A stretch of 64,000 nt of DNA from Thermoplasmata archaeon (lineage in GTDB: Archaea > Thermoplasmatota > Thermoplasmata > UBA10834). How positions within the stretch are numbered: the stretch's first letter is position 1; each line of letters opens with the position of its first letter. Below, one piece after another: positions 10,967-55,074 of the stretch. The stretch is from the NCBI GenBank assembly GCA_041554135.1, contig JBFFML010000005.1, positions 28,195 to 92,194 of the forward strand. The letters are read 5' to 3'. The position numbers and the translations under genes are program-made. Below the pieces are notes generated by a model. It was not told where the DNA came from and did not search any database. It saw only the letters and a list, made by a program, of their open reading frames with translations.

Positions 10967-11458
10967 CTACGCGCCAGCTTCGCCTATCATTCTCAGAATG
11001 CAGTCCACGATTGTAGGCACGGCTGCTGCGACGGGAGCCGTGAGCTCCTCGCTCACGTTCACGACGTCATCCGCCTCGACAGCTACGAAGTGGATCGTAT
11101 CTGGCATTTGGCCGGGTACGACGCGTCTCCCCATTGCGAGCGCCGTGGCAATGTTGATGCCGTGAGGGGAGGAGCCGTGTATCGTCCGTTCGAAGTCTCC
11201 TTCCTCGAGAACATACAACTCACCCGGCAGTCCATTGCCTGTGACGATGGCATCGATGATCACGACGGTGTCGTATCCGAGCACCATATCGAGCAGCTCT
11301 AGCCCGCTGGCTGGCAGTTCCTCCACGTCGACACCTGGCAAGCACAGTCCCCTCATCTTCCTCGCCACGTGTATGCCGACACCGTCGTCCGACAGGATCG
11401 GGTTTCCGACGCCAACAATGAGCGTCCGTTTCGCCCCGGCCACTTCGTCTCCTGTCAT
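10967..11458 (-). CDS. [NiFe]-hydrogenase maturation endopeptidase (HycI/HybD type)
   Basis: LIVGVGNPILSDDGVG motif. ATG at 11458 is preferred over the TTG at 11476. Confidence 0.8.
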   Translation of the reverse strand: MTGDEVAGAKRTLIVGVGNPILSDDGVGIHVARKMRGLCLPGVDVEELPASGLELLDMVLGYDTVVIIDAIVTGNGLPGELYVLEEGDFERTIHGSSPHGINIATALAMGRRVVPGQMPDTIHFVAVEADDVVNVSEELTAPVAAAVPTIVDCILRMIGEAGA

Positions 11459-11489
11459 GTAGGACAACCTCTGCAACGCGGTGGAACAT

Positions 11490-11536: not shown

Positions 11537-13051
11537 TCAGAAGTTTCTCAGCGTCTCCAGTCTCGAACCGTCCGCACGCCTTACGTTGACCTCCAACGCT
11601 GGAGAACCATTCAGGGCGTGCGTGCCGCAGGAGTTGCACGGGTCGTAGCACCGGAACGCCATTTCGACCTTGTTGAGAAGACCCGGAGAGACCTCCCAAT
11701 TCTTGATCAAGGCCTTCGCAGCCTGGACGACGCTCGTGTTTATGGCCGCGTAGTTGTTGGTCGTGGCCACGATCATGTTGATCTTCGTGCACAGCCCGTC
11801 CTTGTCGGAGGCGTAGTGATGTATGAGCGTACCTCTTGGCGCCTCGCAAATGCCAACACCCTCTGTGGGCTCGCCCACCTCTCCACGGATGTCATCGCTC
11901 GTGATGCTCTTGTCGCTCGCCAGTTCGAGCATCCTCTCGGTGGCGTACTGTAGCTCGATCACCCTTGCCCAGTGGAAAGCCAGGGTGTGATGTACAGGCC
12001 CTGTCACTCCGAGGTCCTTCACCGTCTTCGCCAGTACCTCGTATTCCGCCTGAGCGAGTGGGGTGGTGTATCCCTCACAGACGTTGATTCTACCCAGCGG
12101 CCCTACTCTGTAGATGCCGCTCGATGGGCCGTCGGTGAAGCCGTTCCATCCAACCTGCTTCAAGAAGGGCATCTTCATGTATGTCCATGGTTCGACATGC
12201 TCTGCGATAACATCGAGATACTCGTCCGGCTTGTACTTGACGACCTCCTTGCCCGTCTGGTCGACAACACGGATGTCCCCGTCATAGAAGTTCGATTTGT
12301 TGTCCTTGTCCACCATGCCCATGTAGTACGTCTCGAGGTAGTATGCGTCCTGGTTCAGCACAAGGGCCATGTAGTCCTGGTTCGCCAGCACCACGTCGTG
12401 CAGGAGCTTCACGGTGAACTTGGCGAACTCGACGCATGACTTCGCCATCTCCTCCATCTGAGCGCGCTCCTCCTCGCTGATCTGCTTGGATACGCCTCCA
12501 GGAAGGCCGAAACAAGGATGCGTCGCTCTTCCTCCGACGATCTCTTGCACCTTCTGGCCGAATGATCGGTGCTTGATCACCTCTGCTCCTATCTCCACGC
12601 CCACGGCGTCGACTACACCGAGGACATTCCTCTTGTTGGACGGTGCGGACGGGCCCAGCACAAAGTCAGGCGCTGCCAGCGCGTAGAAGTGCGCTATGTG
12701 GCTGTGGGTGTACTGCCCCATGTAGAACAGCTCCCTGAGCTTCTTCGCCGTCTCGGTCGGCTCAGCGTCGAACACCGCGTCGAGAGCCTTTGTTGACGCT
12801 ATGTGGTGCGCGGCCGGACACACTCCGCACAGTCTGTTGGTCAGCACCGGCAACTCCTGCACATGCCTTCCGATGCAGAAGCGTTCGAACCCCCTCAATT
12901 CCGGTACCTGGAGATATGCGTTTGCGACGTTGCCCTGGTCGTTCAGGAATATCTCTATCTTGCCGTGCCCCTCGAGCCTCGTGATCGGGTCGATGGTTAT
13001 CTTCGTCTCCGTCGTCTTCGTCGTCTCGTCGTTTATGATAGGTCCTGACAT
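11537..13051 (-). CDS. mvhA: F420-non-reducing [NiFe] hydrogenase large subunit MvhA
   Basis: RLEGHGKIEI, RLCGVCPAAHH (N-terminal Ni-Fe cysteines), DPCNSCGTH (C-terminal cysteines) and a cleavable tail. Confidence 0.9.
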   Translation of the reverse strand: MSGPIINDETTKTTETKITIDPITRLEGHGKIEIFLNDQGNVANAYLQVPELRGFERFCIGRHVQELPVLTNRLCGVCPAAHHIASTKALDAVFDAEPTETAKKLRELFYMGQYTHSHIAHFYALAAPDFVLGPSAPSNKRNVLGVVDAVGVEIGAEVIKHRSFGQKVQEIVGGRATHPCFGLPGGVSKQISEEERAQMEEMAKSCVEFAKFTVKLLHDVVLANQDYMALVLNQDAYYLETYYMGMVDKDNKSNFYDGDIRVVDQTGKEVVKYKPDEYLDVIAEHVEPWTYMKMPFLKQVGWNGFTDGPSSGIYRVGPLGRINVCEGYTTPLAQAEYEVLAKTVKDLGVTGPVHHTLAFHWARVIELQYATERMLELASDKSITSDDIRGEVGEPTEGVGICEAPRGTLIHHYASDKDGLCTKINMIVATTNNYAAINTSVVQAAKALIKNWEVSPGLLNKVEMAFRCYDPCNSCGTHALNGSPALEVNVRRADGSRLETLRNF

Positions 13052-14076: not shown

Positions 14077-14469
14077 TCAGCTCACCTCCTCTCCTGAAGA
14101 CTCGGCCCTCATCGGGACCGCCGAGTATTGCGGCGACAGGCCTTTCATGCCGACCTGCTCGATCATCCGCCACCGCTTCAGGGCTATTATGTGCCTCACT
14201 ATCTCCGGCTTCGGTATGCCCGTCAGGTCGTGGAGCTCGTGCACCGTCTTGGGCCCATCCTCCATCTGCAGTATGAGCGCGTTTCTCTCGAGCTCGACCG
14301 AGGCAGCCTTCTGCAGTATGAAGCTGTATCTCGCCTCCGTGATGACCTCTCCGAACACGTTCTCGCCCGTGGTGAGGGCGCCCTTCTTGCCGAGCAGCCA
14401 CCTCACCCTCTCGCCCTCGAGCGTCCTTAGGGCGGCCCTTATCTTGGCGTCCCTGGGAGACATGCTCAC
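14077..14469 (-). CDS. Small winged-helix-like protein coupled to mvhD/mvhG (uncharacterised)
   Basis: GPKTVHELHDLTGIPKPEIVRHIIALKRWRMIEQ resembles a wHTH. Homologous to the C-terminal half of 17965-18786. GTGA overlap with the mvhD stop (or ATG at 14463). Confidence 0.5.
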   Translation of the reverse strand: MSMSPRDAKIRAALRTLEGERVRWLLGKKGALTTGENVFGEVITEARYSFILQKAASVELERNALILQMEDGPKTVHELHDLTGIPKPEIVRHIIALKRWRMIEQVGMKGLSPQYSAVPMRAESSGEEVS

Positions 14470-14930
14470 TCACCCTCCCTCGCTATGGGCGACGGCCCCA
14501 GCTCCTCGATCGTGTCCGTGAACTCGACCATCGTCTTCTGGAACTTCTCCCCCTCGCCCGCGGATATCCACTCGAGCCTCAGCCTGCCAGGGTCGAACCC
14601 GAACTGCTGCAGCAGTATCTTCAGGAGGGCGATCCTCCTCCGCGTCCTGTAGTTGCCCCCTATGTAGTGGCAGTCCGCGGGATGGCATCCCGCCACGAGT
14701 ATGCCGTCGGCGCCCTTCTGGAAAGCCCTCAGGACGAACTCGGGGTCGACCCTCGCGGAGCACATCACCCGGATCACCCTGAAGTGCGGCGGCATCTGCA
14801 ACCGGCTGACGCCCGCGAGGTCCGCGCCTGCGTACGAGCACCAGTTGCAGCAGAACACGATTATCTTCGGCTCGAAGTCCCCGGCGTCAGTCTTCGCCTG
14901 CCCCTCCGCGTTGGGTGCCGCGCTGCTCAC
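14466..14930 (-). CDS. mvhD: MvhD ([2Fe-2S] hydrogenase-Hdr connector), copy 4
   Basis: [22 protein letters not shown] and GCHPADCHY motifs. GTG start in a GTGA overlap with the upstream stop. Confidence 0.9.
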   Translation of the reverse strand: MSSAAPNAEGQAKTDAGDFEPKIIVFCCNWCSYAGADLAGVSRLQMPPHFRVIRVMCSARVDPEFVLRAFQKGADGILVAGCHPADCHYIGGNYRTRRRIALLKILLQQFGFDPGRLRLEWISAGEGEKFQKTMVEFTDTIEELGPSPIAREGE

Positions 14931-17900
14931 TGCCTCACCTCCTGCTTCTCGGCGTCGTCCTCAAGCGCCGCGTCGATCATCGCGACTATCTGCTCGTCCC
15001 TGAAGCCCTTCTGCGTGAGCGCGCCGGACGGGCACGCCCCGACACACGCCCCGCAACCCTTGCACAGGCCCACGTTGACGTCGACGAGCTTCTTCGTCTC
15101 GTCCTTCTGGTCGACTATGATCTCGAGCGCCTTGTACTCGCATGTCGGCACGCATATGCCGCAGCCGTCGCAGAGCGTCTCGTCTAGGCTCGCGACGATG
15201 CCCTCCGCCTCGAGGGTCTTCTTCGAGAGGATGGTCATCGCCCGCGACACCGACGCCAGGCCCTGGCCGATGCACTCGTCCAGGAACTTCGGCCCGTGCG
15301 CCAGCCCGGCGAGGTATACGCCCTCCGTGGCGAAGTCCACCGGCCTCAGCTTCATGTGTGCCTCGAGGAAGAAGCCCTCCTTCGTCAGTGGCACCTTGAG
15401 CATGGGCGCGAGCGCGTCCGCGCCCTCGTACGGCCTCGTGCCGCTCGCGAGGACGAGGTAGTCGGGGGTGATCTCGATGTCCTTGCCCGTGTCCTCGTCC
15501 GTGACGGAGACCACGAGCCTGTCACCCTTCGCCTCGACCTTCGGCTTCACGTCGTCCTCGAACCTGACGAAGGTGACGCCCTTCTCGGCCGCGGTCTTGT
15601 AGTACTCCTCCCTGAAGCCGTAGGTCCTGATGTCCCTGTACAGGATGAAGACCTTCGCGTCCGGGTCCTTCTCCTTGATCTTTATCGCCGCCGTCATCGT
15701 ACCCGTGCAGCATACGCGGGAGCAGTTAGGATGCCCCTCCTCGCGCGAGCCGACGCACTGGATGAACACGTACGAATCGCCCTTGACCTCGCCTTTCTTG
15801 AGCTTCTCCTTGAACTCCAGCAAAGTCAGCACGTTCGGGTTCTCGCCGTAGAGATACTCTCCTTTCGGCTTGTACTCCTGGCCCCCTACCGCGACTATGA
15901 CCGTCCCGTGCTCGAACTTCTCGTCGTTCTCCAGCGTCGTGACGAAGTTGCCCACGTAACCCTCGATGTTCTTCACGCCCACGCCGGCGTGCACCGTGAT
16001 GTTCTCGTTCGACGCGACCTCCTTCGCCAACGATTCCGCGAACTCGAGCGGGTCCTCGCCGGACGGCAGGTAGTGCAGCCTCCTCAGGTTGCCTCCGAGC
16101 TCCTTCTCCTTCTCGACGAGGTGGACCTTGACGCCCTGCTTCGCCAGCTCGAGCGCGGCGACCATCCCGGTCGCCCCGCCGCCGACGACGAGCCCGGCCT
16201 GGTTCACGTCGATCATGAGGTTCTCCAGCGGCTCCAGCAACCTGGACTTCGCGACGGCCATGCGTACGAGGTCCTTCGCCTTCTTCGTCGCGGCGTCGGC
16301 CTCGTGCATGTGTATCCACGAGCACTGGTCGCGTATGTTCGCCATCTCGAACAGGTACGGGTTGAGCCCCGCCTCCTTGATAGTGTTCTGGAACAGCGGC
16401 TCGTGCGTCCTCGGCGTGCAGCTCGCGACGACCACGCGGTTCAGGTCGTGCTCCTTGATCATCTCCTTGATCTTCTCCTGCGTGTCCTGTGAGCAGGTGT
16501 AGAGGTTCTCCTCGGCGTAGACCACGTTCGGCAGCGTCCTCGCGTACTCGGCGACGGACGGCACCTTCACGACGCCGCCGATGTTGATGCCGCAGTGGCA
16601 CACGAACACGCCTATGCGCGGCTCCTGACCGGTGATGTCCATCTCGGCGGGGTACTCCTTCTTCGTCACGAGAGTGTCCCTCGCGGAAGCTATCTGCGTC
16701 GCCGCCTTCGCCGCGGCGCCGCTCGCCTCAGCCACAGTCATCGGTATGTCCTTGGGCGACGAGAACGCGCCGCTGACGAACACGCCAGGCCTCGAGGAGC
16801 TGACTGGGTTCAGCACGTCTGTCTTGCAGAAACCGTCCTTGTTCAGCTGGAACTTCATCACGCGGCTCAACGTCTCGGCGTCCTCCGGGGGCCTGAAACC
16901 CACGGCGAGGACGACCAGGCCGAACTCCTCCTCCTTGGGCTCGCCCTTCTCGACGTACTTCACCACGAGGTTCTTCGTCTCGGGGTCCTCGAACACGGAC
17001 GCGACCCTGGAACGGACGAACTCTATGCCGTACTCGTCCTGTGCCCTGTTGTAGTACTCGTCGAACTCCTTCCCGAACGCCCTCATGTCCATGAAGAATA
17101 TCTTGGGCTGTATGTCCCCGCCATGCTCCTTGGCGATGATCGCCTCCTTGATGGAGTACATGCAGCAGACGCCCGAGCAGTACTCGTTGCCCACCTGCTC
17201 GTCCCTCGAGCCCACGCACTGTATGAACGCTATCTTCGCGGGTATGTCGCCGTCCGACGGGCGCATGACGGTGCCGAAGTACGGCCCCGTCGCGCTCAGC
17301 ATCCTCTCGAACTCGATGCTCGTGACGACGTTCTTGTACACCCCGTATCCGTACTCCCCCTTCAGGCGAGCGTTGAACTCGTCGAAGCCGGGCGACAGGA
17401 TTATCGACCCGACCTTGATCTCGAGGACCTTCTCCTTCTGGTCGTAGTCCACCGCGTTCGCCTTGCACTCCTCCGAGCATATGCCGCAGCCTATGCACTT
17501 CTCCGGGTCTATGGAGTAGACGAGCGGCACGGCCTGCGGGTACCTGACGTATATCGCCTTCCTGACCTTGGTGCCCTCGTTGTACTCGTCGGTCACCTCG
17601 ATCGGGCACTTCTGTGCGCATGACCCGCAACCTGTGCACTTGGTCGGGTCCACCCTGAACGCCCTCTGCTTCACGGTCACTGTGAAGTTGCCCTCCTGCC
17701 CGTCGACTATCGCTATGTCCGCGTTGGTGATCAGGTCTATGTTGTGATGCCTGCCCGTGGCCACGAGCTTGGGCGCCATGATGCACATCGCACAATCGTT
17801 CGTCGGGAAGGTCTTGTCCAGCTGGGCCATCGTGCCGCCTATGCTGGGCTGCTTCTCCACCAGGTATACCTTGAATCCGGAATCGGCCAGGTCAAGGGCG

Positions 17901-17968
17901 GACTGGAGGCCCGATATGCCGCCACCCACGACCATGACCGCGCCGATCTTCTCGCCTGCCGCCATCAC
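14927..17968 (-). CDS. Double HdrA-like flavoprotein (1013 aa; two thioredoxin-reductase-like FAD modules in one chain)
   Basis: N-half: [28 protein letters not shown], inserted 2x CxxCxxCxxxC(P), CVGSRD. C-half: [13 protein letters not shown]-domain, VVGGGATGMVAALELA, CVGSRE, and a C-terminal 2x Cys4 ferredoxin. Confidence 0.85.
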   Translation of the reverse strand: MMAAGEKIGAVMVVGGGISGLQSALDLADSGFKVYLVEKQPSIGGTMAQLDKTFPTNDCAMCIMAPKLVATGRHHNIDLITNADIAIVDGQEGNFTVTVKQRAFRVDPTKCTGCGSCAQKCPIEVTDEYNEGTKVRKAIYVRYPQAVPLVYSIDPEKCIGCGICSEECKANAVDYDQKEKVLEIKVGSIILSPGFDEFNARLKGEYGYGVYKNVVTSIEFERMLSATGPYFGTVMRPSDGDIPAKIAFIQCVGSRDEQVGNEYCSGVCCMYSIKEAIIAKEHGGDIQPKIFFMDMRAFGKEFDEYYNRAQDEYGIEFVRSRVASVFEDPETKNLVVKYVEKGEPKEEEFGLVVLAVGFRPPEDAETLSRVMKFQLNKDGFCKTDVLNPVSSSRPGVFVSGAFSSPKDIPMTVAEASGAAAKAATQIASARDTLVTKKEYPAEMDITGQEPRIGVFVCHCGINIGGVVKVPSVAEYARTLPNVVYAEENLYTCSQDTQEKIKEMIKEHDLNRVVVASCTPRTHEPLFQNTIKEAGLNPYLFEMANIRDQCSWIHMHEADAATKKAKDLVRMAVAKSRLLEPLENLMIDVNQAGLVVGGGATGMVAALELAKQGVKVHLVEKEKELGGNLRRLHYLPSGEDPLEFAESLAKEVASNENITVHAGVGVKNIEGYVGNFVTTLENDEKFEHGTVIVAVGGQEYKPKGEYLYGENPNVLTLLEFKEKLKKGEVKGDSYVFIQCVGSREEGHPNCSRVCCTGTMTAAIKIKEKDPDAKVFILYRDIRTYGFREEYYKTAAEKGVTFVRFEDDVKPKVEAKGDRLVVSVTDEDTGKDIEITPDYLVLASGTRPYEGADALAPMLKVPLTKEGFFLEAHMKLRPVDFATEGVYLAGLAHGPKFLDECIGQGLASVSRAMTILSKKTLEAEGIVASLDETLCDGCGICVPTCEYKALEIIVDQKDETKKLVDVNVGLCKGCGACVGACPSGALTQKGFRDEQIVAMIDAALEDDAEKQEVRQ

Positions 17969-18786
17969 TGCTCACCTCCGATCTCGATCGTCCTGTAAAG
18001 GGGCGTGTACCCCTCCGGGTGCTCCATGGCTATCTTGCTGTTCTGCCTCAGGAGGACGATGTGCCTCAGGATCCTGTCCGTCGGCGTCTCCATGAGCATC
18101 CCGAGCTGCTTCACCGACATCGGCCTTATCCTGGCGAGCTCCAGGATCATGGCCCTCTCGAACTCCTCCTCCGTGGCCTCGTCGATGACGCCCTTGAGCT
18201 CCTCGGGGTCCAGCTTGTTGCCGTACGCGTTGCCCTTCTCGACGAGGTTCAGCTCCTTGCCGACGAGCGCCTTGAGCCTGAAGGACTGCGAGGCGTCCTC
18301 CGCGGACGCGAGCCTCGTCCTGACCATGTCGTCCTCGCGGGCCTTGCACGGCCCGAGCGCCTTGATCTGCTCGGTGAACTCCGTGACGACCTTGGAGAAC
18401 TTCTCACCCTCGGACGCGGAGACCCACTCCAGCCTCAGCCTCGCTGGGTCCACTCCCGCCTCCTCGAGGAGTTTCTTCATCAGGCCGACCCTCTTCTCGG
18501 TGTAGAAGTTGCCCGATATGTAGTGGCAGTCGCCTATGTGGCAGCCCCCGAGCAGCACGCCGTCGGCCCCGGCCTTGAACAGGTCGAGCACGAGGTGCGG
18601 GCTCACCCTGGTCGAGCACATCACCCTGACCGCGCGTATGTTCGTCGGGTACTGGTACCTGCTGACGCCGCACAGGTCCGCGCCTGCGTACGAGCACCAG
18701 TTGCAGAGGAAGCCGATTATCTTCGGCTCCCACGGGCCTTCGTGCTTCTTCTCGTGGTGTCCGCCATGGTGGTGCTTGTCCGTCAT
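17965..18786 (-). CDS. MvhD domain fused to a C-terminal winged-helix-like domain
   Basis: N-terminal [24 protein letters not shown] (MvhD). The C-terminal ~120 aa (..ILELARIRPMSVKQLGMLMETPTDRILRHIVLLRQ..) are homologous to 14077-14469. Confidence 0.75.
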   Translation of the reverse strand: MTDKHHHGGHHEKKHEGPWEPKIIGFLCNWCSYAGADLCGVSRYQYPTNIRAVRVMCSTRVSPHLVLDLFKAGADGVLLGGCHIGDCHYISGNFYTEKRVGLMKKLLEEAGVDPARLRLEWVSASEGEKFSKVVTEFTEQIKALGPCKAREDDMVRTRLASAEDASQSFRLKALVGKELNLVEKGNAYGNKLDPEELKGVIDEATEEEFERAMILELARIRPMSVKQLGMLMETPTDRILRHIVLLRQNSKIAMEHPEGYTPLYRTIEIGGEQ

Positions 18787-18789
18787 GGT

Positions 18790-20658
18790 TCACACCTCCT
18801 CGTCAAGCGCGGCCTTCGCCTCCGCGAGCAGCTGCGCGTCGGTGTAGTTCGTCATGGTTATCGCTCCCTCGGGGCATGTGGCGCCGCAGCAGCCGCAGCC
18901 CTTGCAGGCGGCGACGATCACCTCGGCGATGCCCTCGTCGTTCTTCCTCAGGGCGCCGTACGGGCAGACCGTCACGCAGGTGCCGCAGCCAGTGCACTTC
19001 GTCTCGTCGATCACGGACGTGAGCGCCTCCGACTGGACGAACCCCTTGGCCATGGGTATGGCGGCTCGCGACGCCGCTGCGCCCCCTTGGATCGCGCAGT
19101 CCGTTATGTCCGCGGGTCCCCTGCAGGTGCCGGCGACGTACACGCCGTCGGTGGCGAAGTCCACCGGCCTGAGCTTGACGTGCGCCTCGAGGAAGAAGCC
19201 CTCCTGCCCCAGCGGGACCTTCAGCATCTTGGACAGGTCGCCCGCGTCCTGCTGCGCCACCAGCGGCGTGGACAGTATCACCATGTCCACCTGCATGGTC
19301 CTCTCCATCTTCAGCGTCTCGTGGAAGTACGTGATCATCAGCTGGTCGTCCTTCATGAACACCTTCGGGGCGTTGTCGGGCACGTACCGCACGAACTTGA
19401 CCCTCTTCTCCCTGGCCTTGTTGTAGGTCAGCTCGTGCTCGATGCCGTAGGCCATGACGTCCCTGTTGAAGACCGTGACCTCGATCTTGTCCGAAGGTCC
19501 GAGGCGCACCTCCTCCGCGCCCGCGTCCCCGCGGTCCCTGCCGCGCCGTCTCCGCCTCCGCTCCATGATCTCGTCAGGTGCCTTCTGCTCCACGGGCACG
19601 GTCTCGACCACCTCGCCCTCCTTCTCCGCGATACCGAGCATGTTCTCGTAGTTGTCCACGATGTTGATCGCGTTCTTGATGGCCACGTTGCAGCAGATCC
19701 TGGAGCAGTACGACAGCTGCTGCCCCCTCGAGCCCACGCACTGTATGAAAGCCACGTTCTTCAGCTTGGGCAGGGTCTTCTTCTTGCACAGTATCTCGAA
19801 CTCGGTCAGCGTCACGACGTTCGGGTACTGGTTGTATCCGTACAGCCCTTCAGGCACGAACTCGAGCGCCCCCGTCGCCACGATGATGGTCCCGACCTTG
19901 ACCTTCTGGGCCTCCTTGTCCTTCTCCGCGATCTCCACCTCGTAGTTGCCTATGAACCCCTCTGCGGACTTGACCGTCGAGTTGAGGTGGACGGTTATCT
20001 TGTCATTCGCCTGGACCTTGTCTATCATGGGTTTGATGGTCTCGATGGCGCTCTTCTGGGTGACGAACAGGTTGTTCAGGTTCCTGACGAACCCGCCGAG
20101 CTCGGACTCCCTCTCCACGAGGTGGACCGGGAAGCCCATGTCCGCTATCGACGCCGCGGCCGTCATCCCTGACACGCCGCCGCCGATGACCAGCGCCGTC
20201 GACTCCACGTCGACCTTGGCCTCCTCCTGAGGCTCCAGCAGCCGCGCCCGCGCGACGCCCATGCGCACGAGGTCCTTCGCCTTCTTCGTCGCCGCCTCCT
20301 TCTCCTTCATATGGACCCATGAGCAGTGTTCTCTGAGGTTCACGAAGGTGAAGAGGTATTTGTTAAGTCCAGCAGCCGCGCATGTGTTCTGGAACAGCGG
20401 GGCGTGCGTCCTCGGTGTGCAGCTCGCGACGATCACCCTGTTCAGCTTGTGCTCCTTTATCGCGTCCTTGATAGCCGTCAGCCCGTCGTCCGCGCACGTG
20501 TAGAGGTTGTCAGTCGCGTAGGCGACGTCCTTCAAGGTCTTAGCATAATCCGCAACGGACGGCACGTCCACGAACCCGCCTATGTTGCTGCCGCAGTGGC
20601 ACACGAACACGCCGATCCTCGTCTCCTCGTCCTTCCTCTCGTTCTCGCTCATCCGCAA
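18790..20658 (-). CDS. HdrA-like flavoprotein, 'C-half' type (N-terminal CHCG domain + FAD + C-terminal ferredoxin)
   Basis: [36 protein letters not shown] and C-terminal CTGCGTCVTVCP / CKGCGCCGATCP. The track start is TTG; ATG at 20652 is also possible. Confidence 0.85.
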   Translation of the reverse strand: MRMSENERKDEETRIGVFVCHCGSNIGGFVDVPSVADYAKTLKDVAYATDNLYTCADDGLTAIKDAIKEHKLNRVIVASCTPRTHAPLFQNTCAAAGLNKYLFTFVNLREHCSWVHMKEKEAATKKAKDLVRMGVARARLLEPQEEAKVDVESTALVIGGGVSGMTAAASIADMGFPVHLVERESELGGFVRNLNNLFVTQKSAIETIKPMIDKVQANDKITVHLNSTVKSAEGFIGNYEVEIAEKDKEAQKVKVGTIIVATGALEFVPEGLYGYNQYPNVVTLTEFEILCKKKTLPKLKNVAFIQCVGSRGQQLSYCSRICCNVAIKNAINIVDNYENMLGIAEKEGEVVETVPVEQKAPDEIMERRRRRRGRDRGDAGAEEVRLGPSDKIEVTVFNRDVMAYGIEHELTYNKAREKRVKFVRYVPDNAPKVFMKDDQLMITYFHETLKMERTMQVDMVILSTPLVAQQDAGDLSKMLKVPLGQEGFFLEAHVKLRPVDFATDGVYVAGTCRGPADITDCAIQGGAAASRAAIPMAKGFVQSEALTSVIDETKCTGCGTCVTVCPYGALRKNDEGIAEVIVAACKGCGCCGATCPEGAITMTNYTDAQLLAEAKAALDEEV

Positions 20659-21957
20659 TCACGCCCCTCCTGACTGGACGAGCGCCTCGACGGCCTTCGC
20701 CGCCGCGCTCGATCCCTGCGCGACCGATTCCGGTATGTCCGCGGGGCCTGCCGCGTAGCCCGCGAGATATATGCCTGGGACGACTGTCCTGCACGGGTCC
20801 AGCACACGGTCCGCCGCCTCGAGGAAGCCGAACTCGTCGGCCTTGATGCCGAGCATCTTGGCGACCTCCAAGGTCTCCTTCCTCGGCACGAGGGTCGTCG
20901 CCAGGACGACCATGTCGAACTCCTCGGACTGCTGCTTGCCCCCAACGTCGTACACTACGACGGGGTTCTGGTTGTCCGGGTTCTGCTGCACCGTCGCGTC
21001 GGAGTTGACGTACCTCACGCCGTAGTCGCGCTTGGCCCGTTCGACGTACTCGAAGAAGCCCTTCGCGCAGGCGCGCATGTCCTTGTAGAATATGACCGAC
21101 TCGATGTCATCGTAGTGCTCCCTGGCCAGCATGGCCTCCTTGGTCGAGTGCATGCAGCACACGGCGCAGCAGTACGGGTGCCCGACCTGCGGGTTCCTCG
21201 AGCCGACGCACTGGATGAACGCCATCTTCTTCGGACGCTCCTCGTCCGACCTCCTCTTTATGTGCCCATGGGTCGGCCCCGCGGCGTTTATCATCCGCTC
21301 GTACTCCATCGCGGTGAAGACGTTCGGATACTTGCCGTAGCCGTACTCGCTCGCGGATGTGGGGTCCCAGACATCGTAGCCCGTCGCGACGACTATCGCC
21401 CCGACCTCTATCTCGAGCATCTGGTCCTTCATCTCGTAGTCGATCGCCTCGCGGGCGCACACCTTCTTGCAGTTCCCGCACTTGTCCTTCGTGAGCTTGA
21501 TGCAGTTCTCCTTGTCGATCGTCATGACCCTGGGGACCGCCTGCATGAACGGCACGTAGATGGCCTTCCTGTTCTTCAGCCCCATCTCGAACTCGTCAGG
21601 GACCTTCACGGGGCACTTCTCGAGGCACTCGCCGCAGCCAGTGCACTTGTTCTCATCGACGTACCGCGCCTTCTTGAGAACCTTCACCTTGAACTCGCCA
21701 GCCTTCCCCTCGATTCCAACGACCTCCGAATACGTGATGACGTTCGTGTTCGGATGGCCGAAGCAATCCGCCATCTTGGGCGCGAGAATACATATCGAAC
21801 AGTCGTTCGTCGGGAAGGTCTTGTCCAGCTGTGCCATCCTGCCTCCTATGCTCGGAGACTTCTCGACCAGATGGACAATGATCCCCTTGTCCGCGAGGTC
21901 CAGAGCGGCCTGTATGCCCGCGACCCCGCCTCCAATCACCATTACTGACTTCTCCAT
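20659..21957 (-). CDS. HdrA-like flavoprotein, 'N-half' type (FAD + inserted ferredoxin; no CHCG domain, no C-terminal ferredoxin)
   Basis: [48 protein letters not shown] and CVGSRN. Its stop abuts the next gene. Confidence 0.85.
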   Translation of the reverse strand: MEKSVMVIGGGVAGIQAALDLADKGIIVHLVEKSPSIGGRMAQLDKTFPTNDCSICILAPKMADCFGHPNTNVITYSEVVGIEGKAGEFKVKVLKKARYVDENKCTGCGECLEKCPVKVPDEFEMGLKNRKAIYVPFMQAVPRVMTIDKENCIKLTKDKCGNCKKVCAREAIDYEMKDQMLEIEVGAIVVATGYDVWDPTSASEYGYGKYPNVFTAMEYERMINAAGPTHGHIKRRSDEERPKKMAFIQCVGSRNPQVGHPYCCAVCCMHSTKEAMLAREHYDDIESVIFYKDMRACAKGFFEYVERAKRDYGVRYVNSDATVQQNPDNQNPVVVYDVGGKQQSEEFDMVVLATTLVPRKETLEVAKMLGIKADEFGFLEAADRVLDPCRTVVPGIYLAGYAAGPADIPESVAQGSSAAAKAVEALVQSGGA

Positions 21958-22104
21958 TCACAACCCCTCCAAAGAGTGTCTTTGTGGTATCGCTCCTCTA
22001 CATTCACGCAGACGCGGTCCTCACCCGTCCGTGAGTCCTCGCCCCCTGTCGAACTGCCCTTTTCCGTAACTCCTACTCTCTATTATCTGTTTCGTTGACC
22101 GGCC

Positions 22105-22154
22105 GCGGGGCCCCCGGGGGTCGAAATCCGTCCATCGCGCCCCCCGGGGCCGTC
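22105..22154 (-). terminator. GC-rich hairpin directly after the stop of the Cys4 mini-protein gene (terminator or processing structure)
   Basis: GGCCCCCGGGGG (22109-22120) pairs with CCCCCCGGGGCC (22140-22151) at 11 of 12 positions, with a 19-nt loop. Confidence 0.35.
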
Positions 22155-22165
22155 CCGTTTCGTCC

Positions 22166-22588
22166 TCAGGTCACGGCCTTGCCCTTCTTCAGCACCTGCT
22201 TGACGTCCTTGTCCTTCTTGATCTCGGTCACCTTGACCTTGAACGGCACCTTCTTCCTGGCCTGCAGCACCTCGCTCGAGAACCTCTGGCAGTTGGGGTA
22301 TGTGCACGGCGAGCACTTCTTGTCCTTGCACGCCAGCTCGATCAGCACGAGCCTGTCGCGTGTGTCGTCGGGCTTAACCACCGGCTTCTTGACCTCGAAC
22401 ATCTTGGTCATCTTGGTCTCGAAGGGCACCTTCTTGGGCTTCATCTCCCTGACGAACCTCTGGCAGTTAGGGTACGTGCACGGCGAGCACTTCTGGTCCT
22501 TGCATGACAGCTCGATCAGCAGGAACCTCTGGTCGGCGTCGTCCTTCTTCTTCTTTTTCTCCTCGCTATCCACTTTCTTCGGTGACAT
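22166..22588 (-). CDS. Lys-rich mini-protein with two tandem Cys4 repeats (uncharacterised)
   Basis: Two ~58-aa repeats, each (F/L)(L/V)LIEL(S/A)CKD(Q/K)KCSPCTYPNCQRF...KKVPF. It lies 21 nt downstream of the MvhD-HdrCB fusion on the same strand. ATG start. Confidence 0.55.
   Translation of the reverse strand: MSPKKVDSEEKKKKKDDADQRFLLIELSCKDQKCSPCTYPNCQRFVREMKPKKVPFETKMTKMFEVKKPVVKPDDTRDRLVLIELACKDKKCSPCTYPNCQRFSSEVLQARKKVPFKVKVTEIKKDKDVKQVLKKGKAVT
22280..22521. repeat. Intragenic direct repeat: two 68-nt copies (22280-22347 and 22454-22521), period 174 nt
   Basis: By-eye alignment shows roughly 90 percent identity between the copies, while the flanking codons have diverged. Confidence 0.8.
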
Positions 22589-22609
22589 CTTAACATTCCT
22601 TCGTTCGCT

Positions 22610-24208
22610 CTACTCCAATGACTCTGCAATCGCCACGCTGATGTCCTTTATGGGTATGTCTACCTGCTCCTTCGGCACGCCCTCAGTCTTGTTGTCCCTG
22701 GCGCAAGCGAGGTGTATCAGGCATTTGTAGCAGCCGGTGACCAGGCACTCCGCCCCCGTCCTCTTCGCCTCTCTCAGCCTGTCGAGCTGCAGCCTCCGCG
22801 AGATCTCGTCGCATGTCGCCCAGGCGCTCACGCCGCAGCAGAGCGCCTTGTCCCTCGTGTTCTCCATCTCGACGATCTCCGTGCCGTCAGCCGCCTTGAG
22901 CGCGTCCCTGGGCTGGTCGTATATTCCGAGGTGCCTGCCCAGCCGGCAGGAATCCTGGAACGTCAGCTTCCTCGCGTTCGGCTTGAACTTGACCTTGCCC
23001 TCCTTTATCAGGTCGTCGACGTACTCCGATATGTGCACCATCTCGAAGTCCAGGTCGCCCATGAGGTCCTGGTAGTCCATGTCGAAGGTCCTCAGGCACT
23101 CGGGGCATGAGAAGACCACCTTCTTCGCGCCGGAGTCCTTGATCATGTCGATGTTCTTCTTCATGAGCTTCTGGAGGCCGAGCTCGTCCCCCGTCCAGTT
23201 GAGGTCGTGTCCGCAGCAGACCTCGTCGTTCCTGACGACGGGCGTGACGCCGGCCTTGTTCATTATCCTCACGACCGACCTCGGGATCTCCGTCAGTTCA
23301 AGGTCCCTGTCGCTGAGCATGTTGTCGAAGTACGATACGCACCCCGTGAAGTACAGCACCTCGCCCTTCTCGGCCACCTTCAGGTCCGGGGTGACCCAGC
23401 CGAGCCTGTCCTGCTTGAAATCCCCGTGCGCCTGTATCCTCATGAGGGCGTGCATCTGGCCCCCTTGGCTGCAAACGGCCTCGTTGTCCATCTTCGACGC
23501 CTCGACGCGCAGGCCCCTGATGAAGCCCGAGTAGTCCACCTTGTAAGGGCACATCGAGTTGCACTGCTCGCACGTGATGCATGTCCAGATGTCCCTGTTC
23601 GTGGCGAACGTTTCCGCCTGGCCCTCCGTAGCCTTGAGGACGATGGTCCTCGGGGCGAAGTCGGTGTTGTACTTAGCCACCGGGCACACCGTCGTGCACT
23701 TGCCGCACTCGACGCAGTCGAACGCGCCGGTGTCCTCTATGAGCTGGTCTACCTTGTCCTTCAGCTTCGATCGGTCGTACGGCAGCCTCGGTATCTTGGG
23801 CATGGGGTTCGGCCCGAGCCCGCGTATCTGCTCGGTGAACTCCTTCATCGTGGCCGCGAACTTCTGGCCTTCCGAGGCGGATATCCATTCGAGGCGCATC
23901 CTCTCCTGGCCTATGCCCACGATGTCGAGGAGCTCCTTCGTCATGTTCATCCGCTTCTCCGCCTCGACGTTGCCTGATATGTAGTGGCAGTCGCCTATGT
24001 GGCACCCAGCGACGAGGACGCCGTCGGCTCCGAGCTCGAACGCTCGGAGCACGAAGGTGGGCTCGATCCTCCCCGAGCACATCACCCGTATCACCCTCGC
24101 GTTGGGCGGATACTGCATGCGCCCCACGCCCGCGAGGTCCGCGCCCGCGTACGAGCACCAGTTGCAGCAGAACGCGACTATGTGTGGTTCGAATCTCGGC
24201 TCGGTCAT
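22610..24208 (-). CDS. Triple fusion MvhD + HdrC-like (2x[4Fe-4S]) + HdrB-like (2x CCG domain)
   Basis: [24 protein letters not shown], then [12 protein letters not shown] / [12 protein letters not shown], then FTGC..VCCGH..SCPEC and DSC..LCCGV..TGCYKC. ATG at 24208 sits in an ATGA overlap with the upstream stop. The track's N-terminal 125 aa are an out-of-frame artefact. Confidence 0.85.
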
Positions 24209-27200
24209 GTCCCCGCCTCCTGCTTCTCCTCGTCCCTCGCGAGCGCCGCCTCGATCATCGTCATTATCTGGTCTGTCCTGAAGTGCTTCGGGCGGATCGC
24301 CCTTGTGCAGCACTCGACCGCGCACGAGCCGCATCCCTTGCAGAGCGCCTCGTAGATGCGCGACTTGAATACGCCAGGGGAAACCTCCTCGAGTCTCGGG
24401 GCGCCGTACTCGCACAGCTCCTCGCACCTGCCGCAGCCGACGCACTTGTCCTCGTCGACCACGCTGACGACGCCCTCGGCCTCTATGGACGGCTTGGACA
24501 GGACGGTGTTGACCCTGGCCGCCGCGGCGAGCGCCTGGGATATGCTCTCGTCGATCAGTCTCGGCGAGTGCGCCAACCCGCATAGGAACACGCCATCCGT
24601 GGCGAAGTCCACTGGCCTGAGCTTCATGTGCGCCTCGAGGAAGTACCCCTCCTTGTTCTGCGGCACCTTCAGCAGCTGCGCCAGCTCCTTGTTGTCAGGG
24701 TTCGGGTGCACCGCGGCGTTGAGCACGACATATGTGGGCCTGATCGTGATGGTCTCCTCGATGAACTGCTCGTCGACTTCGACCACGAGGTCGTCGCCGT
24801 CGGCCCGCACGCTCGGCGGCGATGATGGGTCGTATCGCAGGAAGATAACTCCCTGCTTCGCCGCCTCGTTGTAGTTGTCCTCCGCGAAACCGTATGTGCG
24901 TATGTCTCTGAACAGGATGTAGACGCTCGTCCCGGGATGCTCCTTCTTGATCCTCAAGGCGTTGGCCATCGCCGTCGAGCAGCATATCCTCGAGCAGTTC
25001 GGGTGCTCATCGTCCCTCGAGCCCACGCACTGTATGATCACCACGCTCTTCGCGTCCAGCTTACCGGTCGCGATCATTTCGCCGAGGTCGGTCTGCCTGA
25101 TCACGCGCGGGTGCTCCCCGTAAAGGTACTCCTTTGGCTCGTACTCGATCCCGCCGGAGGCGACGACGATTGCTCCGTGCCTTATCTCCTCGCCGCTCCT
25201 CAGCCTGGTCTCGAAGTTGCCGATGTAGCCCTTTATCTCCTCGACGGAGTCCTCGAGGTGCACCTTGATCTTATCGTGATCGTGGATGTCTTTCTTCAGC
25301 GCGGCCAGGGTCTCCTGCGGGTCGATCCCCGCGAGGGTGTGGTATATCCTGCGCAGATGCCCACCGAGCTCCCTCTCCTTCTCGACGATATGTACCTCGA
25401 ACCCGGCCTTCGCGATCTCCAGCGCCGCCGTCATGCCGCTCAGGCCCCCGCCTATCACGAGCGCGACCGGCGTGACGGGTATCTTCGGCTGGGGCAGCGC
25501 CTCCAGCCGGGCGGCCTTCGCAACGGCCATGCGCACGAGGTCCTTGGCCTTCTCCGTGGCCGCCTCGGGCTCGTTGCGGTGGACCCACGAGCACTGGTCG
25601 CGTATGTTCGCCATGTCGAAGAGGTACTTGTTCAGGCCGGCCTCCCGGACGGTGTTCTGGAACAGCGGCTCGTGCGTCCTCGGCGTGCAGCTCGCGACGA
25701 CCACGCGGTTAAGGTCGTGTTCCTTGATCATGTCCCTTATCTTCTTCTGCGTGTCCTGGGAGCAAGTGTACAGGTTCTGCTCGGCGTATACGACGCCTGG
25801 AAGCTTGGACGCGTACTCCATGACCTCGGGTACGTCCACGACCGAGCCGATGTTGATGCCGCAGTGGCACACGAACACGCCTATGCGCGGCTCCTGGCCC
25901 GTGGCGTCCCTCTCCTCGGGGTACTCCTTCGCGGTCACGAGCGTCCCCCTCTCATCGGAGAGCAACGCGGCCGCCTTGCCCGCGGCCCCGCTCGCCTGGG
26001 CGACCGAGTCCGGGATGTCCTTCGGGCCAGAGAACGCCCCGCAGACGTAGATCCCTGGCACCGAAGTATCCACAGGAGCGAGCTCGTCGGTCTCGCAGAA
26101 GCCGTAGGCGTTGGCTTTCACGCCCAGCGTCTTCGCGAGCGCGCGGGCTGACTCGGGCGGCGTCGCGCCCGCCGACAGGACGACTATGTCGAACTGCTCC
26201 TCCTTTATGTCCGCCCCGTCTATGAAGCCCAGGATGAGCGAGCCCGTGTCCTCGTCCTGCTGGACCTTTGATATGCGGTTGTTCCTGAACACCCTGACGC
26301 CGTACTCCGTCTCCGCGCGGTGGAGGTACTCCTCGAACTCCTTGCCGAACGCGCGCGTGTCCATGAAGAATATCGTCGTCTTCAACCCGGGCACGTGCTC
26401 CTGCGCTATGACCGCCTGCTTGAGGGCGGCCATGCAACAGTACGACGAGCAATAGGTGTTGGGCGTCTGGGCGTCCCTGGAGCCGACGCATTGTATGAAC
26501 GCCACCTTCTGGGGCACGTCCCCGTCGGAAGGCCTGATGACATGTCCCTCCGTGGGGCCGGACGCGCTCAGCATCCTCTCGAACTCGATGTTGCTTACGA
26601 CGTTGGGGAACACCCCGTGGCCGTACATGGCCTTCCTCGAGACGTCGTAGACGTCGTATCCAGGCGCGAGTATGATCGCGCCCACCTCGATAGTCTCCTC
26701 TATGTCGGGCTCCATCGAGTACTTTATCGCGTCCGCTTCGCAGAACTTCTCACAAATGCCGCAGCCTATGCACAGTCCCCTGTCGATCGTGTACACGAGC
26801 GGGACCGCCTGCGGGAACGGGACGTATATCGCCTTCGCGGGCGCGAGGTCTCGGTCGAAGGCGCTCGTCCCCTCGATCGGGCAATGCTCGGCGCAGACGC
26901 CGCAGCCCGTGCACCTGTCCTCCAAGATGTACCTCGAGTGCCTGGTTATCGTGACATTGAACCGTCCGGCCTGTCCCTCGACCTTCTTCAGCTCGGCGTT
27001 CGTGAGCATATTGATGTTCTCGTGCCTGCCGGTGGCGACTAGCTTGGGCGAGAGGATGCACATCGAGCAGTCGTTCGTCGGGAAGGTCTTGTCCAGCTGG
27101 GCCATCGTGCCGCCGATGCTGGGCGTGCCCTCCAGGAGATATACCTTGTATCCGGAATCGGCGAGGTCCAATGCGGCCTGCATGCCCGCGGGCCCCCCGC

Positions 27201-27240
27201 CGACGATTAGCACCGCGCCCACTTTGCCGTTCTCAGCCAT
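24205..27240 (-). CDS. Double HdrA-like flavoprotein (1011 aa), paralogue of 14927-17968
   Basis: Same half-domain order: [16 protein letters not shown] + [12 protein letters not shown] + inserted ferredoxin, then [12 protein letters not shown] + [16 protein letters not shown] + C-terminal [11 protein letters not shown] / [11 protein letters not shown]. Confidence 0.85.
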
Positions 27241-27241
27241 G

Positions 27242-27691
27242 CTACGCGCCCCCTTCGGAGATCGGCCCGAGCTTCTCCAACTCGGAGACCATTTGCCTGA
27301 TCACTTCCGCGAACTTCTGTCCCTCGGACCCCGCGATCCACTCCACCCTGAACCGCTGCGGCTCTATGCCGGCCTCCTCTAGGAACTCGGAGAGGAACTC
27401 CCCTCTCAACGCCGTCTTCTCGTTCCCGTTGATGTAGTGGCAGTCGGATGGGTGGCATCCGGCGATGATCACGCCGTCGGCGCCCAGGGCGAACGCCTTC
27501 AGGACGAAGGCTGGGTCGACCCTCCCCGAGCACATGACCCTGACTATCTTCACGTTCGTGGGGTACTGCAGCCTGGTCGTGCCCGCGAGGTCCGCGCCTG
27601 CGTACGAGCACCAGTTGCAGCAGAACGCCACGATCCTTGGCTCATATGTCTCCTCTGTCTCCTGAGCGACCGCTTCCCCCTGCAGGCTCAC
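27242..27691 (-). CDS. mvhD: MvhD, copy 1 (follows hdrB)
   Basis: [22 protein letters not shown] and GCHPSDCHY. GTG at 27691 in a GTGA overlap with the hdrB stop, with AAGGGGGG upstream. The long track ORF extension is rejected. Confidence 0.85.
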   Translation of the reverse strand: MSLQGEAVAQETEETYEPRIVAFCCNWCSYAGADLAGTTRLQYPTNVKIVRVMCSGRVDPAFVLKAFALGADGVIIAGCHPSDCHYINGNEKTALRGEFLSEFLEEAGIEPQRFRVEWIAGSEGQKFAEVIRQMVSELEKLGPISEGGA

Positions 27692-28605
27692 ACCCCCCTT
27701 AGCTTCCTGAGGAAGGAGTGCGCCGACACGTGATGCGTGTCGAACCCGAGCGAGATGGGGTCGATGCCCATCGACAGCGCCTGGAACTGGGATATGTGCA
27801 TCACCGGGATGCCGTCCTTCGTGAACGACTTCTGGGCGTTGTCGAACTGCAGGAGACAGAATGGGCAGCCGGTGACTATGCAGTCCGCCTCGGCCGCAGC
27901 GATGTTCCTGCATTTGTCCTCGGTGAGCGAGTTGGCGAGCTCGACCACGTGCGACCTCACGCCACCTCCCGCGCCGCAGCAGTCCAGCTTGTCCTCGTAA
28001 TCGACGCTCGTCGCGCCGCAGGCCTCTATGATCTCGTCGATGTGGACGGGGTCGTTGGGGTCGTCGATGGTCTGGTTCTCCGTCGGCCTGAGGTAATGGC
28101 AACCATAGTGGACGGCCGCGCGTATGTTCTTTAGCGGCCTCTTCGTGCGCTCCCGTATCGCGTCGAGGCCTATGTCGCTCGTCATCATCTCGACGTAGTG
28201 ACGGACCTTCACGGGCCCCATTATGCGCCTTCTGCCCTCCGTCCTGCGCGGTATCCCCGTGTACTTCTTCCCTATCTGGGACAGCATACGGTTCACCTTC
28301 CCCAGGCTCTTGGGGTCCTCCAGGTACTCCGTCGCCTTGAGCAGGGATGTGAGGCATCCGTTGCACACGGTCAGTATCTCCCGCCGCTCGGGCTGGGCCA
28401 GCGTGAGGTTCCTGGCGGCGAGCACGAGCCACGTGTTCTTGTCCGATGAGTAGAATATGCCTGGTACCGGGCAGCAGGAAAATTCCGGGATGTCGATGAC
28501 GTCGAGGTCGAACCCGTCCTTCCCGCATACCCAACGCACGGCGTACTCGACGCCCGGGTATCTGTTTGGTATTATGCAACCGAAGAAGTAGGCGTAGCTG
28601 GTCAA
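27688..28605 (-). CDS. hdrB: Heterodisulfide reductase subunit B
   Basis: Two C..CC(P/G)..CxxC repeats (FGC..SCCPVPG..CNGC and YGC..DCCGAGGG..GCPFC). TTG start in a TTGA overlap with hdrC. Confidence 0.9.
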   Translation of the reverse strand: MTSYAYFFGCIIPNRYPGVEYAVRWVCGKDGFDLDVIDIPEFSCCPVPGIFYSSDKNTWLVLAARNLTLAQPERREILTVCNGCLTSLLKATEYLEDPKSLGKVNRMLSQIGKKYTGIPRRTEGRRRIMGPVKVRHYVEMMTSDIGLDAIRERTKRPLKNIRAAVHYGCHYLRPTENQTIDDPNDPVHIDEIIEACGATSVDYEDKLDCCGAGGGVRSHVVELANSLTEDKCRNIAAAEADCIVTGCPFCLLQFDNAQKSFTKDGIPVMHISQFQALSMGIDPISLGFDTHHVSAHSFLRKLRGV

Positions 28606-29186
28606 GCCTTCACCTCCTCCTCTATGCCTATGAGCTTGTCGTAGCCTACCGCGTGAACGAGGACGTTTATCTCCCTTATCACGCGCGCGTAGTCCTTTCC
28701 CCGAGACGGGACGTCATCGAGCTCCAGCTCCTTCCGTATCTTCTCGATCTCGGGATCGGGCTTGACGCTCTGGCCGTACTTCACCAGGTTGGTCGCGGCG
28801 ACCTTGATGAACGGCGGTATCACGCCCTCCCTGATGGCGATGTGCCTCAGGGCGATCATCACCTCGGCCGGGTTGATGTCAGCGGGGCAGTGCTCGTAGC
28901 ACCTGTAGCATGTCGCGCAGACCCAGCGCGTGCCCAGCGTGAACTTCTTCAGCCCGAACTGGCAGAACTTGATTATGCTCCTGGTCTTGTAGTCGATCTT
29001 CAGGCTTATGGGACAGACGCCCGTGCAGTTGCCGCATTGCAGGCACGTCATGACGTCCTTCCCGCCGTACTTGACTATCTCCTTCGCGAAACCGGGCTCC
29101 AGCTGCGACTCGTCTATGACCTTGTCCTCCACGAGTTTCTCGCTCAGGCCGCTGAGGAATGTCTTCTCGACCTCTCCCATCGTCAC
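28602..29186 (-). CDS. hdrC: Heterodisulfide reductase subunit C
   Basis: CLQCGNCTGVCP and CATCYRCYEHCP ferredoxin motifs. GTG 29186 (GTGA overlap) or ATG 29180 after GGAGGTG. Confidence 0.9.
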   Translation of the reverse strand: MTMGEVEKTFLSGLSEKLVEDKVIDESQLEPGFAKEIVKYGGKDVMTCLQCGNCTGVCPISLKIDYKTRSIIKFCQFGLKKFTLGTRWVCATCYRCYEHCPADINPAEVMIALRHIAIREGVIPPFIKVAATNLVKYGQSVKPDPEIEKIRKELELDDVPSRGKDYARVIREINVLVHAVGYDKLIGIEEEVKA

Positions 29187-51728: not shown

Positions 51729-51915
51729 TAGTATAACTGTGATGAGAGAGTTCGTGGCACTCTTTAGAATGAACTTGGTCGTGCGATTCGTATCTCTCCC
51801 CCCTTTGTCTCTCTGTTATAACCGATGTCAGCCTTTCAGATGTCTATTCTGCCTCCGTAGTCCTTATAGTGAAATGACGGAAAGGGTTTCAGATGTCACT
51901 AGCCTCGGCCAGCGC

Positions 51916-54621: not shown

Positions 54622-55074
54622 CAACTGACAATCCCCCTGCCGCTTCTGACATCTCATACGGAAGCGAAGCGGTTGAGCCCGTAATGGCAATAATCCGCTA
54701 AAATGGTACGGATGATTGCTGAGGAGTCTGGCAAGGGCATAACTACGATATTCGACATCGCAGTACGATATCAGTGGAACGAGGAGCGCGGGTTTCTGCC
54801 TCAGCCGGGCTAGCATCTCTGTGATTCAGGAAGATAAATGGAATCTCATCCCATGCTGGGACGGGCGCTTTCTTGTCACTCGTCGGTCATTCTGCCATTG
54901 GCGCGTACAGAAATGGCATCTCTTTGTCTTTGGATATCCAGGAGATCAGCGATCCCGCGTTTGGAGAAGTGGTATCTTAGGAATATGGATATCCGTCTTC
55001 CACTTCTTCGCGAACGACTACTCACAAGAGATGATCGGTCGAATGGTCTGCTTTGAACGGTCTTCGGTGTTTGC

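Follow-up and report, generated by a model that had tools for sequence, protein, structure and literature searches.

The window analysed here is a 64,000-nucleotide (nt) stretch of DNA from a Thermoplasmata archaeon of the lineage UBA10834 (assembly GCA_041554135.1, contig JBFFML010000005.1, positions 28,195 to 92,194). From about 10.9 to 31.3 kb its minus strand carries a tight array of 17 genes, in which genes of the heterodisulfide reductase (Hdr) and Mvh hydrogenase types stand together, and this work is concerned with the HdrA-like flavoproteins among them. Two of these are double-length proteins of 1013 and 1011 amino acids (aa), which we call D1 and D2, each made of an N-type half followed by a C-type half. 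Two abutting genes of 432 and 622 aa, S_N and S_C, code for the same two kinds of half separately, and a further gene encodes a canonical HdrA. A sequence-only reading had proposed that D1 and D2 are covalently fused, asymmetric pseudo-dimers of HdrA. All of the open reading frames it named are present, as listed below.

29183-31285, minus strand: canonical hdrA, 700 aa, with four domains
24205-27240, minus strand: D2, 1011 aa
25921-27240, minus strand: N-type half of D2, aa 1-440, elements as in D1
24205-25920, minus strand: C-type half of D2, with the Lys409 equivalent replaced by Ala
20659-21957, minus strand: S_N, 432 aa, separate N-type half gene
20650-20675, minus strand: S_N/S_C junction, with GGAGGGG, a TGA stop, 6 nt and an ATG, all in frame
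18790-20658, minus strand: S_C, 622 aa from a TTG, separate C-type half gene
14927-17968, minus strand: D1, 1013 aa, or 1012 aa if the ATG at 17965 is the start
16649-17968, minus strand: N-type half of D1, aa 1-440
14927-16648, minus strand: C-type half of D1, aa 441-1013

The domain map proposed for the two kinds of half was reproduced exactly, using MAFFT alignments of the six halves with the canonical HdrA of the window and phmmer searches against the PDB. The N-type halves carry a GGG flavin adenine dinucleotide (FAD) motif, a cysteine-pair motif, an inserted ferredoxin domain with two Cys4 motifs and a CVGSR...C...CC cluster, and are without the CHCG domain and the C-terminal ferredoxin. 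The C-type halves carry a VFVCHCG motif, a second GGG FAD motif, the CVGSR...C...CC cluster and a C-terminal ferredoxin with two Cys4 motifs; neither the inserted ferredoxin nor an equivalent of DKTFPTNDC is present in their alignments. The same two sets, N-type and C-type, are encoded separately by the 432-aa and 622-aa genes.

In the phmmer search D1 matches the HdrA of structure 5ODC with an overall E-value of 4e-223. Residues 12-371 of D1 match residues 147-508 of that protein (the thioredoxin-reductase (TrxR) domain and inserted ferredoxin), residues 448-601 match 2-155 (the N-terminal domain) and residues 846-1005 match 497-653 (the end of the TrxR domain and the C-terminal ferredoxin). 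The cofactor residues can be placed individually. The N-type half has an FAD motif at G15-G20, the cysteines Cys59 and Cys62 (equivalents of Cys194 and Cys197 of 5ODC HdrA), inserted ferredoxin cysteines at Cys111-121 and Cys158-168, a TrxR cluster at Cys251/264/268/269, and Lys274, which is the equivalent of the Lys409 that contacts flavin N5. In the C-type half there is an N-domain cluster at Cys457/459/492/517(/549), a second FAD motif at G596-G601/E619, a TrxR cluster at Cys738/749/753/754 and a C-terminal ferredoxin at Cys933-943 and Cys969-979, with Thr759 in place of the Lys409 equivalent. This inventory gives D1 seven [4Fe-4S] and two FAD sites. All 28 cluster-ligand cysteines, together with Cys59 and Cys62, are invariant among 45 homologues. 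Because of this invariance and the E-value, the match to HdrA is not a chance one.

The two fusions are 57% identical overall (56% in the N-type halves, 57% in the C-type halves), and each is about 48% identical to S_N plus S_C. The linker between the halves of the fusions is only about 25 residues long. In the split pair, S_N has the cysteine pair, the inserted ferredoxin and the Lys409 equivalent, and S_C also keeps its Lys409 equivalent. Inside the TrxR module of S_C (about aa 345-400) is an arginine-rich insertion of some 55 aa with a RRRRRRGRDRGD stretch.

All four proteins belong to the HdrA superfamily, having the TrxR-fold FAD domain with GxGxxG and the C..C..CC [4Fe-4S] site. They are not canonical HdrA equivalogs, each half being without two of the domains. 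The scores against the NCBIfam models are 747 for NF041778 (cut-off 1400) and 1025 for NF040770 (cut-off 1100). Only the gene at 29183-31285 encodes all four domains, yet it too scores below these cut-offs (700 and 954, respectively).

What do these complementary losses mean? In the canonical (HdrA)2 dimer the FAD', the cysteine pair, the TrxR cluster facing HdrBC and the inserted-ferredoxin clusters of one circuit lie on one protomer, and the N-domain shuttle cluster, the C-terminal ferredoxin and MvhD on the other (PMC13580544). Cys197 acts in trans in this dimer (PMC9012536), and Lys409 of 5ODC HdrA contacts flavin N5 (PMC6405883). The N-type half contains exactly the set of the first protomer and the C-type half exactly that of the second. 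Since each flavin of (HdrA)2 draws on both chains, the complementary losses leave one complete circuit per chain. D1 and D2 have two TrxR/FAD modules per chain with complementary domain loss, the module with the cysteine pair and lysine coming first, and the lysine is missing from the second module (Thr759 in D1, Ala in D2). We therefore consider it likely that D1 and D2 are asymmetric single-chain forms of the HdrA homodimer, and that S_N and S_C form the same heterodimer from coupled genes, with one circuit each.

An AlphaFold2 model of D1 is consistent with this. It forms a single body, with a predicted local distance difference test score (pLDDT) of 85.3, a predicted template-modelling score (pTM) of 0.87 and a confident linker region. 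In Foldseek searches the model matches full HdrA chains (5odh_A, template-modelling score 0.78 normalised to the target) and, over the core of TrxR domain and inserted ferredoxin, 8rwn_A (0.94). The pTM indicates that the halves are held in a fixed arrangement, and in D1 and D2 they would pack against each other within the chain. The proposal of a covalently fused asymmetric pseudo-dimer is thus supported by the domain map, by the trans-wiring of the canonical dimer, by this model and by the published description of BamE, which is discussed below.

In order of transcription the array runs hdrA, hdrC, hdrB, mvhD, D2, an MvhD-HdrCB fusion, a small cysteine-rich protein, S_N, S_C, a long MvhD, D1, mvhD, a helix-turn-helix (HTH) protein, mvhG, mvhA and hycI. 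Beside the HdrA-type genes the features are as follows.

28602-29186, minus strand: hdrC
27688-28605, minus strand: hdrB, with two CCG domains, between hdrC and mvhD
27242-27691, minus strand: mvhD
22610-24208, minus strand: fusion of MvhD, an HdrC-like 2x[4Fe-4S] part and an HdrB-like 2xCCG part, 532 aa, directly downstream of D2
22166-22588, minus strand: small cysteine protein, 140 aa, upstream of S_N
17965-18786, minus strand: long MvhD, 273 aa, between S_C and D1
14466-14930, minus strand: mvhD downstream of D1
14077-14469, minus strand: ArsR/IclR-type HTH protein, 130 aa
13058-14074, minus strand: mvhG
11537-13051, minus strand: mvhA
10967-11476, minus strand: hycI-type protease

Neighbouring genes among the 17 from hdrA to hycI (10967-31285) overlap by 4 nt or stand at most 60 nt apart. 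The sole exception is a 208-nt gap (21958-22165) ahead of S_N, which may hold an internal promoter. With mvhA, mvhG, mvhD, hdrA, hdrB and hdrC together, this is a hydrogenase/heterodisulfide reductase locus of the MvhADG-HdrABC type, and the operon contains MvhAGD, four MvhD domains, HdrBC and one HdrCB fusion. The whole gene order is kept on many contigs of Thermoplasmata and Methanomassiliicoccales (including locus L002 and many others), the closest loci being in Thermoplasmata metagenome-assembled genomes (MAGs), UBA10834 among them. The three-way MvhD-HdrCB fusion is kept in L002 as a protein of 531 aa.

Some of the smaller genes deserve a mention. The 140-aa protein has two repeats of C-x4-C-x2-C-x4-C (LIELSCKDxKCSPCTYPNCQRF) and is without a Pfam or NCBIfam match; proteins 71-74% identical to it occupy this place in the operons of L001 and L002, and it could partner the S pair as a small metal-binding protein. 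In the AlphaFold2 model of the long MvhD (pLDDT 71) the MvhD fold is followed by a pair of long helices and, at the C-terminus, by a winged-helix-like domain. This extension has no Pfam match, and its local Foldseek matches to IclR, ArsR and Zα are weak evidence, with E-values that are not significant. The HTH protein lies between mvhD and mvhG with a 4-nt overlap on each side, and is also kept in L002.

The fused HdrA dimer architecture is already published, and the proteins of the window are a further example of it. The closest description is that of BamE, a subunit of the class II benzoyl-CoA reductase of Geobacter metallireducens, for which a 2026 preprint reports a 'fused HdrA dimer' by cryo-electron microscopy (bioRxiv 10.64898/2026.04.10.717634). 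According to the same preprint, the N-terminal TrxR1 module of BamE binds the bifurcating FAD, with Lys280 at N5 and the pair Cys59-Cys62, the TrxR2 module binds a non-bifurcating FAD (Gln768), and the clusters are numbered E1-E7; BamF is a long MvhD-like adaptor with a winged helix and BamD an HdrBC fusion. Like D1, BamE is one chain of about 1000 aa with inserted and C-terminal ferredoxins, seven [4Fe-4S] clusters and no lysine in the second module, and D1 has its cysteines at exactly positions 59 and 62. The 273-aa long MvhD and the MvhD-HdrCB fusion are the counterparts of BamF and BamD in the window, the fusion at 22610-24208 being an analogue of BamF plus BamD. The systems differ in that the donor module of the window is the MvhAG [NiFe] hydrogenase, the host is a Thermoplasmata archaeon and no selenocysteine (Sec) codons are evident.

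The locus itself is not a benzoyl-CoA reductase cluster. Among the window genes scanned with Pfam there is neither a tungsten enzyme of the BamB/BamC (AOR) type nor a NuoEFG-like BamGHI, which rules out this identity. Nor are the two bacterial loci that were examined, L068 and L072, Bam clusters. The first of these, from a MAG of Ca. Desulfopertinax, has a 1015-aa double HdrA followed by an HdrCB-type fusion (L068:9443-13804) near a formate-tetrahydrofolate ligase gene, which places this module in a Wood-Ljungdahl setting too.

Related arrangements are known from anaerobic methanotrophic archaea (ANME). Their fused HdrA3/4 and tandem HdrA5/6 and HdrA12/13 show complementary loss of the N-domain versus Cys197 and the C-terminal ferredoxin, and heterodimers or self-heterodimers that break the two-fold symmetry have been proposed for them (Chadwick et al. 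2022, PMC9012536). As in the window, the ANME gene clusters contain several hdrA copies, mvhD and HdrD-like genes, although the lineage is another one and the partners there are FdhAB-like. As far as it is described in later papers, the MetFV-HdrABC-MvhD complex of Moorella thermoacetica contains a double HdrA that binds two FADs (Mock et al. 2014, cited in PMC5861303 and PMC9012536). These accounts give it MvhD and HdrBC as partners and one flavin proposed to bifurcate; the donor they name is NADH and the acceptor methylenetetrahydrofolate via MetFV, with no hydrogenase. A survey from 2024 found duplicated-HdrA fusions across Archaea.

Two further comparisons are useful. The canonical HdrA homodimers (5ODC, 8RVU and 7BKB) share the folds, the cofactor motifs and the wiring across two protomers, but are symmetric with two complete circuits, whereas the units in the window are one chain or a heterodimer with one circuit. 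The sequence-only reading had also called these units QmoA-QmoB-like. As a short and long pair of HdrA-like flavoproteins, S_N and S_C do resemble QmoA and QmoB of sulfate reducers. That said, the analogy is a loose one. QmoB has a fused MvhD, and QmoC is a membrane haem-b subunit linked to aprBA; in the window each MvhD domain is encoded on its own or in a fusion with HdrCB, only an HdrC-like iron-sulphur part is matched by the qmoC model and there are no apr genes. The locus is not a Qmo locus.

From these comparisons an electron path can be proposed. The N-type half would be the catalytic protomer, binding the bifurcating FAD with its lysine at N5; its TrxR-domain [4Fe-4S] cluster would be wired to an HdrC/HdrB-type partner and its inserted 2x[4Fe-4S] ferredoxin domain would be the low-potential exit. 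The C-type half would serve as an 'arm' protomer, providing in trans the N-domain shuttle cluster, which the Cys197 equivalent of the N-type half would complete, and docking MvhD through its C-terminal 2x[4Fe-4S] ferredoxin domain. The losses would then keep one complete circuit (seven [4Fe-4S] and two FAD) and remove the symmetric second one. Electrons would enter from H2, which we infer to be the donor, through MvhAG, the [2Fe-2S] cluster of MvhD and then the C-type half's C-terminal ferredoxin to the FAD of the N-type half. The high-potential electron would pass by the TrxR cluster of the N-type half to an HdrC/HdrB-type module, i.e. hdrCB for the canonical HdrA and the MvhD-HdrCB fusion for D2. 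The low-potential electron would first cross to the shuttle cluster in the C-type half's N-domain, return to the N-type half at its inserted ferredoxin and leave from there to ferredoxin.

The assignment of roles to the two flavins can be compared with residue conservation in a dereplicated set of 117 halves, taken from the window and from 82 loci. In every half the glycines of the FAD GxGxxG motif, the β2 glutamate and the cysteines of the TrxR cluster are kept. The cysteine pair is found in 49/49 N-type halves and is essentially absent from the 68 C-type halves. At the Lys409 position all 49 N-type halves have a lysine, as do 22/40 fused C-type halves. This pattern is consistent with the N-type FAD being the presumed bifurcating one, and in D1 and D2 the second flavin probably has a structural role.

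Several points weigh against the interpretation of the three units as one-circuit pseudo-dimers. The Lys409 equivalent is kept in S_C and in about half of the fused C-type halves, as counted above. For four HdrA units the operon has two HdrB-type modules only. The equivalence with BamE is drawn from the text of a preprint. Finally, Chadwick et al. word the order of the fused HdrA3/4 the other way round, with the N-domain half first (PMC9012536); among the fusions recovered here the Cys197 half comes first in 79/79.

The first of these points bears on an alternative in which both flavins are competent and the proteins are two-site enzymes, or else QmoAB-like modules that transfer electrons without bifurcation. 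The retained lysines make a second active flavin possible in S_C and in about half of the fused C-type halves, the FAD motif and TrxR cluster cysteines are kept throughout the C-type halves, and Qmo itself has two FADs without an assigned role (PMC3333476). However, the C-type halves have neither the cysteine pair nor the inserted ferredoxin, the lysine is Thr in D1 and Ala in D2, and the second FAD of BamE lies off the branching point and is described as structural. On balance we regard two working flavins as unlikely.

A second alternative concerns the locus as a whole. The 17-gene operon could encode one modular bifurcation hub, in which a single MvhAG hydrogenase feeds the canonical HdrA dimer and three different asymmetric pseudo-dimers; an MvhD adaptor would be assigned to each of them, and their high-potential outlets would differ. 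The conserved split S pair, with the flavin-N5 lysine in each of its halves, could then be a two-flavin heterodimer that differs mechanistically from BamE. We hold this arrangement to be rather doubtful.

It is also conceivable that the halves are swapped, the N-type half of one fusion pairing with the C-type half of another, so that two fusion chains would form a dimer with two circuits. In favour of this are the obligate dimer state of canonical HdrA and the short linker. In contrast, the monomer model of D1 has the high pTM and confident linker given above, BamE is described as one chain that makes the equivalent of a dimer within the protomer, and from the split S pair the functional unit is seen to be a 1:1 heterodimer. 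We give swapping little credence, and prefer the single-chain pseudo-dimer.

Lastly, there is almost no prospect that the pattern is an artefact, the fusions being frameshift or assembly errors and the split a pseudogene, a nonsense mutation or a TGA that is recoded or read through (e.g. for Sec). In its favour, S_N and S_C lie in the same frame with one TGA between them, and BamF, the adaptor in the related Bam complex, contains Sec. A search with D1 found more than 100 clusters of full-length fusions (1002-1017 aa, 61-100% identity) from MAGs of Thermoplasmata, Thermoplasmatota and Methanomassiliicoccales. In a filter-free search of 1.84 billion representatives at 50% identity, about 130 of the best 150 were at least 940 aa long, and most of these were colinear over residues ~5-1002. 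The fusion is therefore genuine and widespread. About 35 of the same best 150 (including P0361-P0375) are double HdrAs of 1275-1530 aa, with an extra insertion of ~470-500 aa at the position of the inserted ferredoxin, perhaps the NfnB-like one that ANME-1 HdrA9-11 are reported to have.

The split is equally well conserved. The best 120 clusters of S_C orthologues (75-100% identity) are all 618-626 aa long, which suggests that the arginine-rich insertion is conserved as well. In 51/51 related loci the pair is encoded by two genes. Their stop codon is TGA in 47/51 loci and TAA in 4/51, and the frame offset is 0 in 19, +2 in 30 and +1 in two. At the junctions either the genes overlap in ATGA or 5-6 nt separate the stop from an ATG, and with GGAGG upstream they are of a type typical of coupling; in the window the true start of S_C is likely the ATG at 20652, giving 620 aa. 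S_N and S_C are a conserved two-gene arrangement with translational coupling. With the split conserved, the frames varying and TAA also in use, a nonsense mutation, a pseudogene, a sequencing error, Sec and read-through at the TGA are all ruled out; homologue lengths and the junction survey likewise exclude a sequencing error or frameshift that artificially joins or splits the genes.

The phylogeny of the halves was approached with a quick neighbour-joining tree (320 columns, 100 bootstraps), which should be read as a rough one. N-type halves, fused or split, form one clade (100% bootstrap), and C-type halves, fused or split, separate from the N-type halves and canonical HdrA (95%). This pattern spans Thermoplasmata, Methanoperedens, Asgard archaea, Desulfobacterota and Syntrophales. 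Since the clades follow the type of half regardless of fusion, the asymmetric pair arose once and both states are old. For both kinds of half the split S sequences group as a single clade (90% and 99%), which includes the Methanoperedens pairs and, among the N-type halves, has the fused clade as its sister. The statement that one locus captures both the fused and the split state is accordingly true as a description, but the split pair is a paralogue of long standing that has been conserved separately and is about 48% identical to the fusions. The window holds three ancient paralogues (D1, D2 and the S pair), not one unit in two states.

Elsewhere in the window are genes for peptidases, for Opp-type transport, for aminotransferases and for proteins of the MttB family. 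Two MttB-family methyltransferase homologues (40208-41629 and 46301-47767, both on the plus strand) are without an in-frame stop, and so would be non-pyrrolysine members; both lie among aminotransferase, nitrilase-family and GNAT genes. There are also three clostripain-family (C11) peptidase genes (916-2412, 4399-5613 and 47800-49146, minus strand) and an Opp-type transporter for peptides (49813-54816), whose binding protein of 966 aa is PKD/PEGA-decorated. The C11 peptidases and the transporter fit a peptide-degrading lifestyle.

In summary, duplication and complementary loss appear to have turned an obligate homodimeric bifurcating enzyme into an asymmetric one with a single site, which would be able to bind one donor adaptor and one acceptor module. 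The principle is already established by BamE, the Moorella HdrA and ANME; the value of this locus is a well-conserved archaeal example together with a natural set for comparing the fused and split states. Among the lineages that branch basal to Methanomassiliicoccales, UBA10834 is one of those reported as non-methanogenic, with multiple hdr and mvh homologues of unassigned role. Three pseudo-dimer modules beside a canonical Hdr and an Mvh hydrogenase point to several distinct H2-driven bifurcation reactions.

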